Part shown: positions 5,069-48,064 of the stretch, piece by piece | How positions within the stretch are numbered: the first letter of the stretch is position 1 | Layout: every line of letters begins with the position of its first letter | Source of the DNA: Xanthomarina sp. | GTDB taxonomy: Bacteria > Bacteroidota > Bacteroidia > Flavobacteriales > Flavobacteriaceae | Reading direction: 5' to 3' (one strand) | Assembly (NCBI GenBank): GCA_035306605.1 | Contig: DATGNR010000033.1 | Length of the DNA stretch: 64,000 nt | Notes under the pieces: model-generated | Seen by the model: only the letters and a program-made list of their open reading frames with translations | Databases searched by the model: none | Told to the model about the DNA's origin: nothing | Made by a program: the position numbers and the translations under genes

Positions 5069-7160
5069 GCAACTAAACGTAGCCCTAATAGGAAACCCAA
5101 ATACTGGAAAAACTTCAGTTTTTAACGCCCTAACAGGCATGAACCAAAAGGTTGGAAACTATCCAGGAATTACCGTAGAAAAGAAAGAAGGAATCTGCAA
5201 ACTCCCTCGTGGTGTAAAAGCTCACGTTATAGATTTACCTGGAACTTATAGTCTAAACGCATCTTCATTAGACGAAAATGTGGTTATTGAGTTGTTATTA
5301 AACAAAAACGACAAAGATTTCCCAGATGTAGCTGTGGTAATTAGCGACGTTGAGAATTTAAAAAGAAACCTACTTTTATTCACCCAAATAAAAGACTTAG
5401 AAATACCTGTTATTCTTGCTATAAACATGGCGGATAGAATGAAATACAAAGGTATTTCGTTAGATATTCCTTATTTAGAAAAGCAGCTTAACACTAAGAT
5501 TGCTCTAATAAGCACCAGAAAAAATGAGGGTATTGACAAGTTGAAAGAATTGATTTTTAACTACAGAGAGTTATCTGTTTCACCTTGTTTAAATGCTTCC
5601 GAAATTGACAAAAAATATTTTGAAGATCTACAAAAAGCATTTCCAAACCAATTATTATACAAACTTTGGTTGGTAATTACACAGGATGTTAACTTTGGAA
5701 AAACAGATAGAAATGACTTTGATTTGGTGGCAGATTTTAAAACAAAATCAAAAGCCGATTTAAAACGATTACAGCAAAAAGAAACTGTAAAACGTTACCA
5801 ATTTATAAACCATGTTCTTAAAAAAGGACAAACCATAGATCTGAGTACAGCTAAGGATTTACGTATAAAATTAGATAGAATATTAACTCACAAAGTTTGG
5901 GGTTATGCTATTTTTATCCTTATACTTTTACTTATTTTCCAAGCCATTTACGACTGGTCTGAGATTCCTATGAATTTTATTGATGCTAGCTTTGCCTCTC
6001 TAAGCGATTGGACAAAAAATGCGTTACCAGCCGGTACCTTCACCAATTTATTAGCCGAAGGAATTATTCCAGGACTTGGAGGGATAGTTATTTTTATTCC
6101 ACAAATTGCTTTCCTTTTCTTATTTATTTCTGTCTTGGAGGAGAGCGGTTATATGAGTCGTGTGGTCTTTTTAATGGACCGCGGTATGAGACGTTTTGGA
6201 CTAAGTGGAAAAAGTGTTGTACCCTTGGTTTCAGGAACAGCATGTGCCATTCCAGCTATTATGGCCACAAGAAACATTGAAAGTTGGAAAGAACGTTTAA
6301 TCACTATTTTAGTTACTCCATTTACTACCTGTTCCGCACGGCTACCGGTTTACTTAATTATTATCTCGTTGGTTATTCCTGATGGTCGTTTTCTAGGATT
6401 AAGTTATCAGGCTTTAACTTTAATGTTACTTTATTTAATTGGTTTTGGAGCTGCTTTAATATCAGCTATGATATTAAATAAAATATTGAAAATTAAAAGC
6501 AAATCTTTTTTTGTAGTAGAAATGCCCAACTACAAATTGCCATTAATTAAAAACGTGTTTTTAACTGTAGTTGAAAAAACAAAGTCCTTTGTATTTGGAG
6601 CTGGAAAAATAATTCTAGCCATTTCTATAGTACTGTGGTTCCTGGCGTCTTATGGTCCTGGAGAAGAATTTAATAATGCAGAAGAACTTATAACCGAAAG
6701 ATTCGCAGATCAAAATTTATCAGAAGCAGAACTTGATAACGAAATAGCCTCTCAAAAACTAGAGTATTCCTTTATTGGATTAACAGGTCGTGCCATAGAA
6801 CCTGTAATTAGACCTTTAGGATACGATTGGAAAATAGGGATAGCTTTAATTAGCTCGTTTGCTGCTAGAGAAGTATTTGTTGGAACTTTAGCCACTATTT
6901 ACAGTGTTGGCAGCGATGAGGAAGAAACCATTAAAAACAGAATGGCTGGAGAAGTAAACCCTATTCTAGGTGGCCCCTTATTTAATTTTGCCTCAGGAAT
7001 TTCTTTATTGCTATTCTACGCCTTTGCTATGCAATGTATGAGTACACTCGCTATTGTAAAACGAGAAACTAACAGTTGGAAATGGCCTGTTTTACAATTG
7101 GTTTTAATGACCCTTTTCGCCTATATAGTTGCATTAATTGCCTACCAATTATTAATTTAA
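5061..7160 (+). CDS. feoB: Ferrous iron transport protein B
   Basis: GNPNTGKT, VGNYPGITVE, DLPGTYSL GTPase motifs plus gate/membrane domains. Confidence 0.97.
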   Translation: MSKQLNVALIGNPNTGKTSVFNALTGMNQKVGNYPGITVEKKEGICKLPRGVKAHVIDLPGTYSLNASSLDENVVIELLLNKNDKDFPDVAVVISDVENLKRNLLLFTQIKDLEIPVILAINMADRMKYKGISLDIPYLEKQLNTKIALISTRKNEGIDKLKELIFNYRELSVSPCLNASEIDKKYFEDLQKAFPNQLLYKLWLVITQDVNFGKTDRNDFDLVADFKTKSKADLKRLQQKETVKRYQFINHVLKKGQTIDLSTAKDLRIKLDRILTHKVWGYAIFILILLLIFQAIYDWSEIPMNFIDASFASLSDWTKNALPAGTFTNLLAEGIIPGLGGIVIFIPQIAFLFLFISVLEESGYMSRVVFLMDRGMRRFGLSGKSVVPLVSGTACAIPAIMATRNIESWKERLITILVTPFTTCSARLPVYLIIISLVIPDGRFLGLSYQALTLMLLYLIGFGAALISAMILNKILKIKSKSFFVVEMPNYKLPLIKNVFLTVVEKTKSFVFGAGKIILAISIVLWFLASYGPGEEFNNAEELITERFADQNLSEAELDNEIASQKLEYSFIGLTGRAIEPVIRPLGYDWKIGIALISSFAAREVFVGTLATIYSVGSDEEETIKNRMAGEVNPILGGPLFNFASGISLLLFYAFAMQCMSTLAIVKRETNSWKWPVLQLVLMTLFAYIVALIAYQLLI

Positions 7161-39601: not shown

Positions 39602-41824
39602 CTATTGTTTAATAAATTTCTTAGTCATAATTTCTTCACCATCATTTACTTCTATAAAGTACATGCCAGTTTTTAAGCTGCTCACGTTTATTTCTTTAAT
39701 AGAATTTCCGGTAAGTACTACCTGACCAATCATATTAATAATTCTAAAAGTTCCTGCCGTATTTCCTGGTAATTTCACATTCAATACAGTTCCTTTAACT
39801 GGGTTTGGGTATAAAAGGAAATCTTCTTCAGAAGTAAAACCATCATTTGTATCTACAGTTTTAATAGCTTCTATGGAATTTCCTAATCCTTTAGATCCAG
39901 AACCAATACCTCTAATAATTACTTTATCTATATAAATATAGTCGCTATTATTACTTGCATCGCATTGAAATCTAAATTGAGAATTGCTACCAAAATTATA
40001 TTGAGAAGCATCTAGCGTGACAGTTGCCGTATAGAAGGTGTTGTTATTAAAATTAACTCCACTTGCATAGCTTGCCACTGTAGACCAACTAGAACCATTA
40101 TAGAAACGTAACCAGAAATCTTCGTTAGTTTCCATACTGTAAGCATAAAAATAAAACTCAACTTCCACTTGGTTATAAGCTGATAAGTTAAAAGATGGAG
40201 AGGTCATTGCTGAAGCTGTTCCAGAATTATCTCTTAATTGAATAGAATAATTTCCTTCATAAGAACGAGAACCTGAGTAACGAGCACAATCGCTTCCTCC
40301 ATCAGACCATCCATCCCAACCAGACTCAAAGTAACCTTCGTGAAGCACATCCGTACCACCAGTTGAACAAGGTGAACATGACGAACCACCACAATCTATT
40401 CCTGTTTCATCTCCATTTTGAATACCATCAGAACATGTTGGTGTTGGCGCACTTCCTACACAGAAATTAGTCGCTTCCGATTTACCAAATGATCCTCCTG
40501 AAGCCAGAACTCCAGTTGCTCCTGTTACGGAATAGTTACCATTACCATAAGAACAGCAAATACCATCTCCATAGGTATCGGTAATTGTAAATGTATAGCA
40601 TCCATCAGCTAAACATAAGGTTTCCGAAATAGTAGACCCACCAGATTGAGAACCATAAGTTCCACCCGAGGCCACTGTGGTACCACTTGCATTTTTAAGA
40701 GACCAAGCCGTTTCTGCTGGATAATTATCGAATTTTATAGAAAGAATTACTTCGTTTTCTGAACATGATGTTTGACAAGGTTCGCAAGAAGAACCACCAC
40801 AGTCAACACCTGTTTCGTCGCCGTTTTGTACGCCATCAGAACAAGTAGGAGTACTACCTCCTCCATCGCATTTTGTTGAAGCTCCCAAACTAGCTCTTGC
40901 ACCGCCCGGTAGCAAAACTGCGCGCATTCTGTTTTTTTGTCCTACAGTATACAAATTCATACAGGCATCATCACTATAATCCATATAGTTTTGAACCATA
41001 TCAGTAGTTCCGCAAGATACATGTCCTGTAGCACAACCGTAGTTTGCTGCATCTGATGTTGGTGTATCACTTACAAAATCATCCACTGAGCATCCACCAT
41101 CACCCCAAATATGACGTAGGTTTAAAAAGTGACCTACCTCATGGGTTGTTGTTCTACCTAAATTGAAAGGTGAGGATAAATAAAATCCTGAGCCACCATT
41201 TTTACTTCCAAAATAATTTGGGCCAATAACCACGCCATCAGTTGCTGCACTACCTCCAGGAAATTGAGCATAACCTAAAATTCCACCCCCAATATTACAT
41301 ACCCACATATTTAAATACTGCGACGTATTCCATGGGTCAACTCCACCTTGCGAAGATTTTTTCATGGCATCATTGGTTCCCCAAGATGTTTTAGACGAAG
41401 ATTTTCTTGTAATTCCATTAGTAGGATTCCCATTAGGATCTACTGTTGCCATACAAAACTGGATTTGCGTATCCGCAGCCTGAGACCAGGTATTATTAGC
41501 ATCCGAATTCATTCTTCTGAAATCGTCATTCAACACTTGGATTTGAGATAAGATTTGTGCATCACTAATATTCTCATTAGAATTGCTGTAAATAACATGA
41601 ACAACTACAGGAATTGTAATGATAGAACCATCAATTCTTGATTGCTCCATGTTTTCAATCTTGTTTTGTGTGTAAGACTCAATTTGGGCCATTCGTTGTG
41701 CAAGACCTGGGTCTTGTTGCATTCGGTACTCTAGGTTTTCCATGGAGGCACAATTTCGCTCTTGAGCAAAACTGCTTCCAATTACAAGAAAACAAACAAT
41801 TAATAATAAAATAATGTTTTTCAT
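39602..41824 (-). CDS. M43 (pappalysin/ulilysin-like) zinc metalloprotease with Cys-rich repeats and T9SS sorting domain
   Basis: IPVVVHV, HEVGHFLNLRH, NYMDY Met-turn; C-terminal YPNPV...GMYFI..KKFIKQ. Confidence 0.92.
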   Translation of the reverse strand: MKNIILLLIVCFLVIGSSFAQERNCASMENLEYRMQQDPGLAQRMAQIESYTQNKIENMEQSRIDGSIITIPVVVHVIYSNSNENISDAQILSQIQVLNDDFRRMNSDANNTWSQAADTQIQFCMATVDPNGNPTNGITRKSSSKTSWGTNDAMKKSSQGGVDPWNTSQYLNMWVCNIGGGILGYAQFPGGSAATDGVVIGPNYFGSKNGGSGFYLSSPFNLGRTTTHEVGHFLNLRHIWGDGGCSVDDFVSDTPTSDAANYGCATGHVSCGTTDMVQNYMDYSDDACMNLYTVGQKNRMRAVLLPGGARASLGASTKCDGGGSTPTCSDGVQNGDETGVDCGGSSCEPCQTSCSENEVILSIKFDNYPAETAWSLKNASGTTVASGGTYGSQSGGSTISETLCLADGCYTFTITDTYGDGICCSYGNGNYSVTGATGVLASGGSFGKSEATNFCVGSAPTPTCSDGIQNGDETGIDCGGSSCSPCSTGGTDVLHEGYFESGWDGWSDGGSDCARYSGSRSYEGNYSIQLRDNSGTASAMTSPSFNLSAYNQVEVEFYFYAYSMETNEDFWLRFYNGSSWSTVASYASGVNFNNNTFYTATVTLDASQYNFGSNSQFRFQCDASNNSDYIYIDKVIIRGIGSGSKGLGNSIEAIKTVDTNDGFTSEEDFLLYPNPVKGTVLNVKLPGNTAGTFRIINMIGQVVLTGNSIKEINVSSLKTGMYFIEVNDGEEIMTKKFIKQ

Positions 41825-41990: not shown

Positions 41991-43682
41991 ATGCCGAAAT
42001 CTCATTTACTTAGCATTAAAAATATTTCTATTTCTTTCCTATCTAATAAGATAGAGAAAGAAATAATCCGTGATATTTCCTTTCATCTAAATTCCAATGA
42101 AATACTTGGCATAGTTGGGGAGTCTGGATCAGGAAAATCAGTATCTTCCCTAGCCATACTTGGCTTGCTTCCTAAACGTATTTCAAAAATAACCCAAGGA
42201 AGCATTTTGTTTGAAGGCCAGGATTTAACCAAAATAACATCCAAAGAATTTCAGAACATTAGAGGTAACGAGATTGCCATGATATTTCAAGAACCTATGA
42301 GTTCTTTAAACCCTTCCATGACTTGTGGCAAACAGGTACAGGAAATTATATTACAACACATAAATCTTTCTAAAAAACAAGCTCAAACAGAAACTTTAGA
42401 GCTTTTTGAAAAAGTAAAACTCCCAAACCCTAATCGGGTTTATAAGGCCTATCCGCATGAAATTTCAGGAGGACAAAAGCAACGGGTAATGATTGCCATG
42501 GCTATAGCTTGTAAACCTAAAATACTAATTGCAGATGAACCTACCACTGCTTTAGATGTAACTGTTCAAAAAGAAATTATTCTTCTTTTAAAGCAGTTGC
42601 AAGCTGAACAGAATATGAGCATTATTTTCATTTCCCATGATTTATCTATCGTATCTGAAATTTCAGATAGAATTTTGGTGATGTACCAAGGAGATATCGT
42701 GGAACAGGGGCCCGTGGAACAAATTTTTAAAAATCCGGAACACACGTATACAAAAGCTTTGATCAACTCTAAACCCTCTTTAGACGTAAGATTAAAAAGA
42801 CTGCCCACTATCAAGGATTTTATGAATAAAACGACGGATAGAAGCATTGTTTCCAATGAAGATAGAAAAGAGTTTCACGATAATATTTATTCTAAAGCAC
42901 CATTATTAGAAGTTATTAATTTAGAAAAAACCTATATCTCAAAATCTGGTTGGTTTTCTAAAGCAGAAAGCTTTAAAGCTGTAAATCAAGTAAGTTTTAA
43001 GTTATATGAAGGAGAAACCCTAGGTTTAGTTGGCGAATCTGGTTGCGGAAAATCGACACTAGCAAATGCCATTCTACTTCTTGACCAAGCTACCTCTGGC
43101 TCCATTTTATATGAAGGAAAGGATATCACCAAACTATCTAAAAGCGACACCAGGAAGCTACGTAAAGACATTCAAATTATTTTTCAAGATCCTTACGCTT
43201 CTTTAAACCCGCGCATTCCAGTTGGAAGAGCTATTATGGAACCTATGAAAGTTCACGGAATTGGAGCTTCCGATAAAGAAAGAAAAGAATTGGTTTTAGA
43301 TTTACTAGAAAAAGTTGGCCTAGACAACTCGTTTTTTAACAGGTATCCACATGAGTTTTCTGGGGGTCAAAGACAACGAATTGGAATTGCAAGGGCTATT
43401 TCTTTACAGCCTAAATTAATTATTTGCGATGAATCCGTTTCAGCTTTAGATATTTCGGTGCAAGCACAAGTACTTAATCTACTAAATGATTTAAAAGAGA
43501 ATTTTGAATTTACTTATATTTTTATTTCACACGACTTAGCTGTTGTAAAATATATGTCCGATCAATTGATTGTAATGAATCAAGGACAAATTGAAGAAAT
43601 GGATGATGCAGATATTATCTATAATAGTCCGAAGAAAGACTATACTAAAAAATTAATTCATGCTATCCCAAAGGGATTATAG
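41991..43682 (+). CDS. Peptide/nickel-type ABC transporter ATP-binding protein, two fused NBDs
   Basis: GESGSGKS and GESGCGKS; YPHEISGGQ and YPHEFSGGQ. Confidence 0.93.
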
Positions 43683-43805
43683 CATGAATATCTTTTTAGT
43701 TAAATACATTAAACTTTTAATAAAGCGTCCAGTATTTTGCACACTAGAGTAAAGTTTACTCTCGTAATTTGTAGGTTGTTCAGGTAGATTTGGGGCAAAA
43801 TTCAT
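43677..43805 (-). CDS. Putative small protein, 42 aa (not in ORF track)
   Basis: [42 protein letters not shown]; A/T-rich leader before ATG; stop codon lies within the last codons of the ABC ATPase gene. Confidence 0.5.
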   Translation of the reverse strand: MNFAPNLPEQPTNYESKLYSSVQNTGRFIKSLMYLTKKIFML

Positions 43806-43930
43806 AATAATTAAATTTTTGGTAGATTTGGGATCTACTCTCTTTTAATCTTGAATTTATAATAGATTTGGGGCAAATTATAAATTCAAGATTTCCAAGA
43901 GTTAGGTTAATTAGTTACTTTGATTTGGTT
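43783..43930 (-). ncRNA. Putative structured RNA or leader with repeated CCCAAAUCUA motif in hairpins
   Basis: TAGATTTGGG at 43785, 43823 and 43863; 17-bp perfect stem 43847-43863/43877-43893; 6-bp stem 43822-43838. Strand inferred. Confidence 0.4.
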
Positions 43931-44065
43931 TCGCTAATATCATAAAATTTTTAACATATTTAGTCTAAATGCATAATAAATCGTTGAAATGCACTAAATT
44001 TTAACATTTTAAATATAATAATGCGTTTTTACCTACAAAAACTAAAAAGCAGTCTATAACATAAA

Positions 44066-44123
44066 AACCAAAAAGCCACAATTCTACAAATATTTGAATT
44101 TAAATATTTATCGAATTGCGGCT
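44066..44123 (-). terminator. Long hairpin, probable terminator for scoB
   Basis: AGCCaCAATTC..AAATATTT..AAATATTT..GAATTGcGGCT with flanking A-tract. Confidence 0.55.
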
Positions 44124-45727: not shown

Positions 45728-48064
45728 CTAAAAATCCAATTCATCAGGTATTTCATTCTCTGGTGTAGAACCACCTGAATTTCCATCAGGATTATATTTT
45801 GAACAATCTACTTCTATTGAAAGGTCTACTGGTCTTTCAAAATCTGAAGTCGACACATCTAAATTTTTATCTTCGATACAGCTTTTCATATAAACTCCCC
45901 AAATTGGTAATGCCATAGATGCTCCTTGACCATAAGTTATGCTTCTAAAATGTGCTGCTCTATCTTCGGCTCCAACCCAAACTCCAGTTACTAAATTTGG
46001 TACCATTCCCATGAACCAACCATCACTTTGGTTTTGTGTTGTACCGGTTTTACCTGCTATAGGGTTTGTAAAAGCATACGGGTAACCTGTCATTATTTCT
46101 TTGTAAACCCCACTACTTGGCATCCAAGTACGTCTTAGTCTAGCTCCAGAACCTCCTTCGGTTACACCTTCCATTAACTTAACAGTAACGAAAGCCGCTT
46201 CTGCGCTTAAAACATCTCTAGTTTCTGGGGTGAATTGATATAAAATAGTCCCATTTTTATCTTCTATATGTGTTACCATAACTGGTTTGGTATAAACACC
46301 TTGATTAGCAAAGGCAGAATAAGCACCAACCATTTCATACACGCTTAAATCGGCCGATCCTAAAGCAATAGAAGGCACAACAGGAATATCTGCTTCCACA
46401 CCTAACTTTTTAACTAAATCGACAACAGGTTGTGGGCCAACTTTATCCATTAACCTAGCTGTAATGGTATTTATAGAATTTGCCAATGCGCTTTTTAAAG
46501 TTCGTGAACCACCATAAGAACCATCAGAATTTTTAGGAGTCCACGGTTCTGGATTTCCAAATTTTCCAGCCTCTATGGTTATTTGTGTATTTGGAAGCTC
46601 ATCGCAAGGAGATAAATGCAATTGATCTATAGCTGTTGCGTAAACAAAAGGTTTAAATGTAGATCCAACTTGTCGCCTAGCTTGCTTAACGTGATCGTAT
46701 TGAAAATGTCTGTAATTCATTCCACCAACCCAAGCTTTTACATGTCCGGTTTGCGGATCCATAGACATCATTCCTGGGTGTAAGAACGACTTGTAGTAAC
46801 GCATGGAGTCCATAGGTTTCATTATGGTATCTATTTCACCTTTCCATGAAAAAATACTCATTTGCGTTGGTTCGTTAAAAGAGGCGATAATTTCATCGTC
46901 ACTTTTATCTAAATCGTACTTCATATGTCTCCAACGCTCGCTTTGTCTCATAGAACGATTCATAAGTGCATCAATATCACTTTTGCTCAATTCTAAAAAT
47001 GGTGCCGTTGGATTTCTATCTGGTGTATTTTGTTTATCAAATTCTGCTTGAAGTCTAGGCATATGTTGAGCTACCGCATCTTCAGCATATTTTTGCATTC
47101 TAGAATCAATGGTCGTATAAACCTTCAAGCCATCGCCATATAGGTTGTATTTTTCACCATCTGGTTTTGGATTGTTTCTTATCCAATCCTTCATAAAACC
47201 ATCAAGATACGCTCTAAAGTAAGTAGCAATTCCATCGCGATGTGATTGTGGTGTATAACGTAAATCCAATTCTGTTTTTTGAAGTGAATCCTTCACAGCT
47301 TCAGAAATATAATTATACTTCTCCATTTGACTTAAAACCACATTTCGTCTGTTTCGGGTACCAACTGGATTTCGGTGTTCTCTCGGGTTGTAAAGTGAGG
47401 AGTTTTTAAACATTCCTACTAACATAGCCGATTCTTTAATATCTAAATCTTTAGGTTCTTTATCGAAATAAATACTAGCTGCAGAACGGATACCGTCTCC
47501 ATTATTACCAAAATCGTAGATATTAAAATACATGGCAATAATTTCTTCTTTGGTATATTGACGTTCTAAACGAGTTGCAATAACCCACTCCTTTATTTTT
47601 TGGGTATACTTATCCCAACCTTTAGATCTAACTCCAACAAATAATTGACGTGCTAACTGTTGAGAGATGGTACTAGCACCTCCTTTTTTTCCCATGAAAA
47701 AGATAGCTCTTAAAGTTCCTCGTGCATCAATACCAGAGTGGTCGTGAAAACGGGCATCTTCTGTTGCTATAAGAGCATCTACCAAGTGTTTTGGTAAATC
47801 ATCGTAATCTACAGGTGTTCTATTATCGTTAAAATAAAATTTACCTAAAGTCTTTCCGTCGGAAGAAATGATTTCAGTTGCTAAATTTGTTTTAGGGTTT
47901 TCTAATTGAGTATAATCTGGAAGCTCACCAAACACGCCCCAAGACGCTAATAAAAATACTAGTACAACAAATAAAATACCTGCAATAAAAAGTTTCCAAA
48001 ACCAGCGAACATAGCTTGAAAAATCTTGAGTTTTTTCTGATTGTTTCTTTTTTTCTTTAGCCAT
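45728..48064 (-). CDS. Class A penicillin-binding protein 1A (transglycosylase-transpeptidase)
   Basis: EDARF, GASTISQQL, GSTFKP (SxxK), SIN, GKTGT. Confidence 0.95.
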   Translation of the reverse strand: MAKEKKKQSEKTQDFSSYVRWFWKLFIAGILFVVLVFLLASWGVFGELPDYTQLENPKTNLATEIISSDGKTLGKFYFNDNRTPVDYDDLPKHLVDALIATEDARFHDHSGIDARGTLRAIFFMGKKGGASTISQQLARQLFVGVRSKGWDKYTQKIKEWVIATRLERQYTKEEIIAMYFNIYDFGNNGDGIRSAASIYFDKEPKDLDIKESAMLVGMFKNSSLYNPREHRNPVGTRNRRNVVLSQMEKYNYISEAVKDSLQKTELDLRYTPQSHRDGIATYFRAYLDGFMKDWIRNNPKPDGEKYNLYGDGLKVYTTIDSRMQKYAEDAVAQHMPRLQAEFDKQNTPDRNPTAPFLELSKSDIDALMNRSMRQSERWRHMKYDLDKSDDEIIASFNEPTQMSIFSWKGEIDTIMKPMDSMRYYKSFLHPGMMSMDPQTGHVKAWVGGMNYRHFQYDHVKQARRQVGSTFKPFVYATAIDQLHLSPCDELPNTQITIEAGKFGNPEPWTPKNSDGSYGGSRTLKSALANSINTITARLMDKVGPQPVVDLVKKLGVEADIPVVPSIALGSADLSVYEMVGAYSAFANQGVYTKPVMVTHIEDKNGTILYQFTPETRDVLSAEAAFVTVKLMEGVTEGGSGARLRRTWMPSSGVYKEIMTGYPYAFTNPIAGKTGTTQNQSDGWFMGMVPNLVTGVWVGAEDRAAHFRSITYGQGASMALPIWGVYMKSCIEDKNLDVSTSDFERPVDLSIEVDCSKYNPDGNSGGSTPENEIPDELDF

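Follow-up and report, generated by a model that had tools for sequence, protein, structure and literature searches.

The minus strand of positions 43783-43930 probably encodes the 5' leader and first codons of an mRNA for a 42-residue protein, with tandem sites complementary to the small RNA Rfp13, which would block translation of this mRNA. These positions are part of a window of 64,000 nucleotides from Xanthomarina sp. (the whole stretch of DNA that was analysed), and the locus constitutes the first strong candidate target, or decoy, of Rfp13, with two to four predicted docking sites placed around the start codon. The initial annotation had read the same positions as an undescribed flavobacterial RNA-protein or RNA-RNA regulatory element, in which a motif is under selection while the stems that display it drift. 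As an RNA-RNA element this was right in kind: the motif is conserved, and the region matches neither a mobile-element end nor an Rfam family. "Undescribed" holds for the predicted target mRNA and its small protein, neither of which had been described previously; it does not hold for the partner, given that Rfp13 is a published small RNA, and the system is therefore not entirely undescribed.

On the plus strand, TAGATTTGGG is found at 43785, 43823 and 43863, as the initial annotation had it; 0.19 matches are expected in the window, and three were reached in 0 of 100 shuffles. The surrounding architecture that it described was likewise recovered. Copies 1 and 3 have the 15-mer TAGATTTGGGGCAAA in common, a partial GATTTGG is present at 43922-43928, copy 3 occupies a 13-nt loop closed by a stem of 17 uninterrupted base pairs (43847-43863 / 43877-43893, by inverted repeat and fold), copy 2 is enclosed by a 6-bp hairpin (GTAGAT/ATCTAC, in sequence and fold), and copy 1 overlaps codons 3-8 of the minus-strand ORF. 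Comparison with nine genomes of the same genus and one of another genus agreed that the motif is kept and the outer stem of hairpin 3 is not; within the genus, the loop and inner stem of this hairpin are invariant and the outer stem varies. No Rfam family matches the window region at permissive E-values, and searches of this region and of the Rfp13 locus on contig C35 returned sub-threshold chance matches only (mir-83 for the long hairpin, OrzO-P for the terminator of Rfp13). The end of an insertion sequence or MITE, or a dispersed repeat, was considered and rejected: the 10-mer occurs only nine times in the genome (about 5.4 expected), five of these copies belong to two described loci (three in the window, two in the Rfp13 genes on C35; the other four are scattered), and 96 of 99 loci are syntenic.

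The two copies on contig C35 identify the partner. They are located 232 nt apart between purF and sodA, each directly upstream of an intrinsic terminator, and belong to two tandem Rfp13-family genes on the minus strand (5381-5460 and 5612-5692; L170 and L171). A covariance model trained on 56 members of the family gives these elements 102.6 and 93.8 bits, their core is identical to the published Rfp13 sequence (PMC9723704, supplementary file 9), and each forms a promoter-to-terminator unit in a sodA/purF neighbourhood. According to Guérin 2021 (ISME Commun, PMC9723704, supplementary files 3 and 9), the Rfp13 of Flavobacterium psychrophilum (THC0290_N_0129) is a 73-nt RNA with a mapped start site, is encoded beside sodA and carries the remark 'induced under iron depletion'. 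The link to iron comes from this one species, and for Xanthomarina we infer it. The RNA is about 75 nt long; it starts with a 5' hairpin, continues through the single-stranded linker AGAUUUGGGGC and ends in a terminator. Its core carries GGUAGAUUUGGGGC, and the predicted fold leaves the linker unpaired. Both C35 genes have a -7-like box (TACATTTG / TACATTAG) 4-5 nt before ACCAU and a terminator of their own, and most members of the family have a conserved word, (A/G)TTTnnTCTAA, some 38 nt ahead of the -7 box.

Rfp13 is widespread in the family. The covariance model detects it in 123 of 151 family genomes, leaving 28 negative, and BLAST finds Rfp13 units in 48 of 61. The genes are usually arranged in tandem, in arrays of two to six. 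Their 41-nt core is almost invariant, and the terminator stems co-vary, with G.U pairs that form solely on the motif strand. The literature searched, later papers included, reports no target or function for Rfp13. The target lists available from the F. psychrophilum study are computational and offer no standout candidate, and ranks 1-31 of its predicted-target list contain no obvious relative (PMC9723704). Complement words such as CCAAATCTACC, which might have revealed a mapped start or transcript of the target in F. psychrophilum, are absent from the supplementary files of that study, which cover promoter stretches, sRNA sequences and target lists, as distinct from the genome.

Strand and partner of the element, which the initial annotation had left open, can now be assigned. 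The motif stands on the plus strand of the window and the minus-strand RNA (CCCCAAAUCUACC) is therefore the complement of Rfp13, matching its single-stranded core GGUAGAUUUGGGGC exactly; the RNA concerned is the leader and first codons of the small-protein mRNA. In an anti-Rfp13 short-word BLAST of the whole genome, the three best non-self matches are sites 1 to 3, all on the same strand, with site 1 as the best non-self antisense match of the genome (Table 1). Site 1 contains a perfect stretch of 17-18 nt inside about 30 nt of near-continuous complementarity, and its duplex with the genome's own Rfp13 reaches -43 to -46 kcal/mol; the extended duplex at site 2 reaches -29 to -31 kcal/mol, site 3 (at about -66; a 15-nt perfect complement) -29.4 kcal/mol, and site 4 (at about -123) -19.8 kcal/mol, where all energies leave out the cost of opening the Rfp13 5' hairpin and mRNA hairpin 2. 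Over 6000 random tiles the mean was -14.2 kcal/mol (sd 3.6, minimum -31.8, 0.1-percentile -27.6), which places site 4 within background; complementarity to the accessible region of Rfp13 as such is well beyond the background of the genome. The place equivalent to site 4 holds a CCCCAAA word in most genera.

Table 1. Features of the Rfp13-complementary locus and its surroundings in the window.
Feature	Position	Strand	Details
Bidirectional terminator hairpin	43648..43697	both	inverted repeat I3 and fold; U-run after it on either strand
Gene, conserved unnamed 42-aa protein	43677..43805	-	consensus MNxAxNLPEQPT..ESKFKET..
Rfp13 site 1 (copy 1)	43770..43800	-	mRNA +6 to +36, codons 3-12
Rfp13 site 2 (copy 2)	43820..43832	-	mRNA -27 to -15; 13-nt perfect complement
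Hairpin displaying Rfp13 site 3 (copy 3, 43863-43877) in 13-nt loop	43847..43893	-	stem, fold
Weak/partial Rfp13 site 4 (AACCAAAUC ... UUAACCUAA)	43902..43928	-	partial match to Rfp13 linker and loop
Conserved upstream block, candidate promoter/operator of small-protein gene	43935..44040	-	conserved in 30 genera
Terminator-like hairpin after CoA-transferase B gene	44074..44123		inverted repeat I1, A-/T-runs at flanks; Pfam assignment of neighbour

The leader is structured (fold z = -7.3). The predicted mRNA fold leaves site 1 unpaired, and part of site 2 is held in a small hairpin, GUAGAU-CCCAA-AUCUAC (43817-43833). Related loci show a counterpart of the latter: at about -35 to -15 from the ATG, AUAGAUUU precedes site 2 in most genera (L056-L084). 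The resulting hairpin, UAGAUUU-CCCC-AAAUCUA, masks site 2 with an Rfp13-like word, and the Xanthomarina hairpin is its local form.

Given that hairpins form on either strand and that the copies share the linker word of Rfp13 (GGUAGAUUUGGGGC, complete in copies 1 and 3 and partial in copy 2), the plus strand could instead be the functional one, specifying either an RNA related to Rfp13 but longer and with several G-rich seeds, or a protein sponge displaying UAGAUUUGGGG in its loops. We regard this as very improbable, and as much less likely than an Rfp13-regulated mRNA on the minus strand. The plus-strand copies score 15.7 and 13.2 bits against 94-103 for real Rfp13 genes, with only the linker aligning, and they have neither the 5' hairpin (ACCAUAAC...GUUCAUGGU) nor the terminator of the family, nor a -7 box at the distance seen in Rfp13. 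Moreover, the sites keep one fixed orientation to the ORF across 99 loci, and the opposite strand is a selected protein-coding gene whose frame explains the indel-free block described below. The comparison with protein sponges of the CsrB/RsmZ type drawn in the initial annotation is not supported: no CsrA gene was matched in this 87.8%-complete genome, although it was detected in control genomes, the motif does not correspond to a GGA loop, and the plus-strand copies do not pass the Rfp13 covariance model. A plus-strand promoter was also tried and rejected, as TAGATTTG fits the -7 consensus but has no -33 partner at 19-21 nt; in Rfp13 genes the word is located inside the transcript, right before the terminator.

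The ORF that the sites overlap is a small-protein gene by comparative criteria. It occupies an intergenic gap of 483 nt between the 3' end of an ABC ATPase gene (plus strand, 43682) and the 3' end of a CoA-transferase B-subunit gene (minus strand, 44166), and in 96 of 99 loci it lies tail-to-tail with the ABC gene, adjoining or overlapping its 3' end. The two frames share 6 nt in the window, and the hairpin at their junction terminates both convergent genes; the last residues of the ABC ATPase (..IHAI..) and of the small protein (..FML) are encoded in its two arms. The ABC ATPase gene at this locus is duplicated. Full-length, open copies of the ORF were found in 49 of 151 family genomes, a public genome collection yielded 196 confirmed loci, and a protein collection holds at least 300 clusters, which are named 'hypothetical protein' wherever the source gives a name. 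Pfam assigns no family to the protein, and a search of a protein atlas returned no usable match.

Among 11 orthologues from the genus, the block 43683-43805 is free of indels, which do occur in the remainder of the gap; all 11 keep the 42-codon frame open, and none of the other five frames has a pN/pS as low. Over 79 loci, pS is 0.69 and pN/pS 0.34 for codons 14-35, the corresponding values are 0.88 and 0.04 for codons 36-41, and the other frames that were scored have pN/pS above 1. The substitution pattern thus indicates that the minus-strand ORF is a genuine small-protein gene, with protein-level selection clear on codons 14-41. A structure model predicts a disordered segment for the N-terminal 13 residues and one long amphipathic helix for residues 14-41, charged and rich in Lys, Glu and Thr.

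A small peptide with a long helix, a structured leader (z as above) and 20-30 nt of sRNA complementarity over the start region would also suit a type I toxin-antitoxin pair, in which the 42-residue peptide would be a toxin held off by an antisense-like Rfp13. We consider this improbable, and much less likely than regulation of a small-protein gene by Rfp13. The helix is amphipathic rather than a hydrophobic membrane helix, and the gene is single-copy and syntenic beside the same ABC ATPase across dozens of genera, whereas type I toxin-antitoxin systems are patchy and mobile. Rfp13, for its part, is encoded on another contig, in several copies, is present in 74 genomes without the ORF, and is reported as stress-induced in F. 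psychrophilum rather than constitutive. The locus therefore has neither a hydrophobic membrane toxin nor an antitoxin RNA of its own.

Predicted regulation of the small-protein mRNA by Rfp13 draws support from the conservation of the sites and of their position. With one mismatch allowed, 94 of 99 unique loci contain CCAAATCTA two or more times in ORF sense; a site at +12 occurs in 90 loci and one at -23 to -30 in about 92. Opposite-orientation matches number eight in total over the same loci. Subsets of genera, including Xanthomarina, have extra sites near -57 to -66 and at about -120, and four sites are present in Xanthomarina and in 22 of the 99 loci. The complementary sites therefore overlap the start region and keep their position across species. 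Both genes were fetched from 14 genomes; with one exception, pairing of each genome's Rfp13 with its two core sites there reaches energies of -26 to -50 kcal/mol. The leader duplex in typical other genera runs almost unbroken from about -29 to +3, including the AUG in several, and a second image of Rfp13 covers +6 to +36.

The coding site carries a further signature. Codons 1-13 have a pS of 0.17, four to five times below the remainder of the ORF (0.69-0.88; 79 loci). Leu7 is encoded by CTA in 90 of 90 loci, a codon that accounts for 11.6% of Leu codons in this genome, while 89 of the 90 use AAT for Asn6 and 85 use CCT for Pro8. As judged from these alignments, synonymous change is suppressed in this segment, pointing to RNA-level constraint on top of coding.

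Rfp13 and the ORF also co-occur: Rfp13 is present in all 49 ORF-bearing genomes, and the ORF in none of the 28 Rfp13-negative ones, a pattern that is supportive only because the genomes are related. In 74 sampled genomes Rfp13 is present without a detectable ORF, and the 42-residue protein mRNA therefore cannot be its sole target. Given that the Rfp13 core is almost invariant, compensatory changes between sRNA and sites cannot be shown, and part of the similarity could stem from common descent instead of selection for pairing. One candidate for compensation, an Rfp13 variant with an extra A (GGUAAGAUUUGGGG), was examined in two genomes of other genera and set aside. In the alignment, the extra A is present in the single Rfp13 copy of G025 and absent from the two copies of G015, and the case is not clean because the ORF is shorter in both genomes and pairing is split, with CCCAA(A)UC plus AACCUACUUAUG over the AUG. 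These two loci (L085 on G025:C20 and L086 on G015:C5) encode a shorter homologue of about 29 residues (M..NTFRLL(R/K)SVMYVAKKVF..) that does not contain NLPEQPT, and their AUG falls within AACCUACUUAUG, which is exactly complementary to the loop of the Rfp13 hairpin, CAUAAGUAGGUU; from the sequences, a different part of Rfp13 would cover the start codon here.

We propose that Rfp13, which is reported as induced under iron depletion in F. psychrophilum, seeds pairing with the C-rich sites of the mRNA through its G-rich linker once it accumulates. Site 1, predicted to be unpaired, and site 3, displayed in a loop, would be accessible for this initial contact, from which the duplex could extend into the Rfp13 hairpin. 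Pairing at about -27 to -15 (through the AUG in other genera) and over codons 3-12 would cover the ribosome landing zone, and in Xanthomarina two further sites upstream, one of them predicted in a hairpin loop, might contribute. High levels of Rfp13 would then switch translation of the small protein off, and the long duplexes would probably expose both RNAs to double-strand RNase. Transcription of the minus strand in Xanthomarina, and repression as the direction of control, are what we infer from this arrangement. No Hfq was found in this 87.8%-complete genome, which fits the long complementarity. To our knowledge, Bacteroidota lack Hfq, and their post-transcriptional control is little understood.

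Given that each transcript offers two to four sites, the mRNA could also titrate Rfp13. Taken to its end, this would make the transcript mainly a decoy or sponge that sets a threshold for other Rfp13 targets, with the small protein as a secondary passenger or second function. A transcript with multiple high-affinity sites (four of them in Xanthomarina and in the same 22 of 99 loci), complementarity of 17-22 nt in excess of what translational control needs, amplification of the Rfp13 genes to two to six copies, and the many Rfp13-encoding genomes that do not have the ORF, where there must be other targets to buffer, would all suit such a role. However, the two universal sites fall exactly on the translation start region, as control of the ORF would require, and the protein is under strong purifying selection; we consequently think it unlikely, if well worth keeping in mind, that sponging is the main function. 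The two functions are not mutually exclusive.

A more speculative idea, which we doubt but find worth stating, concerns the origin of the pairing. The leader and N-terminal codons might be tandem antisense images of nearly the whole 5' 45 nt of Rfp13, loop and stem included and with indels in a matching pattern, which would give regulator and target a common origin by inverted duplication; the conserved NLPEQPT peptide would then be a by-product of the docking site, and the leader could act as a tunable sponge that sets the threshold of the iron-limitation response in Flavobacteriaceae independently of Hfq. Inverted duplication of this kind is a route proposed for young plant microRNAs, and we know of few if any documented cases among bacterial trans-acting sRNAs.

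Control of the small-protein gene at the level of transcription is less clear-cut. Upstream of the sites, a block conserved in 30 genera is a candidate promoter or operator, and within the genus conservation extends up to about 44040; the terminator-like hairpin stands between this block and the CoA-transferase B gene. Inspection by eye of the 30 genera for a canonical Bacteroidetes -33/-7 pair (TTTG / TAnnTTTG) did not fix one in the block, and the minus-strand candidates TATGTTTTT and nATATTAG were discarded for wrong or ambiguous spacing. In minus-strand sense, positions 43955-44000 and 30 related loci contain the word ATTTCA(A/T)CGATTT, and near-identical words (TTTCATCGATTT, ATTCAACGGTTT) are found at the far upstream end of the F. 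psychrophilum Rfp13 and Rfp15 promoter stretches (PMC9723704). This word could be the site of a shared regulator, in which case sRNA and target might be co-regulated. Other Xanthomarina genomes (L006-L013) have a plus-strand ORF of 21 codons (MKLFLSCSAK...) in the block at 43935-44000; it has no ATG in this genome and is thus probably not a gene. The neighbours (ABC ATPase, CoA transferase, M43 peptidase and PBP) show no evident link to iron. Of these, the M43 metallopeptidase (39602-41824, minus strand) carries a C-terminal sorting domain for type IX secretion, and the penicillin-binding protein (45728-48064, minus strand) belongs to class A; nothing evident connects either of them with the element.

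Few sRNAs of the Flavobacteriaceae are as conserved as Rfp13, and the locus described here provides a concrete, sequence-defined candidate partner through which its function becomes testable. At the same time, it adds an unnamed small-protein family, widespread in marine Flavobacteriaceae, as an example of a coding sequence that appears to be shaped by an sRNA docking site.

How does this system compare with known ones? The partner sRNA has the same core, hairpin-linker-terminator layout and sodA/purF neighbourhood as Rfp13 of F. psychrophilum (PMC9723704), whereas the element in the window is not an Rfp13 gene but the complement of Rfp13 within an mRNA. With the iron-sparing sRNAs RyhB, PrrF, FsrA and IsrR, Rfp13 shares its reported induction by iron limitation and a predicted pairing over the start region of an mRNA; its tandem duplication is reminiscent of PrrF1/F2, and like IsrR it would act with no Hfq involved, given that none was found in this genome. 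However, Rfp13 has no sequence relation to these four sRNAs, and their targets are iron-containing enzymes, while the predicted target here encodes a small protein and has several long sites per mRNA. The initial annotation had pointed to S. aureus RNAIII. This is a fair analogy insofar as an RNA of the pair also encodes a peptide, and the multi-site contacts of RNAIII with the rot and coa mRNAs likewise join a repeated short C/G-rich motif to its complement, partly in hairpin loops, and thereby shut the translation start. The roles are reversed, however: here the C-rich repeats belong to the mRNA and the G-rich seed to a short sRNA, and the peptide is encoded by the target instead of the regulator. 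Finally, chbBC-ChiX, SroC-GcvB and 3'ETS-leuZ-RyhB provide precedents for an RNA made for another purpose with sites that could capture an sRNA. In contrast to these sRNA traps, the putative capture sites described here coincide with the translation start of the ORF that hosts them.
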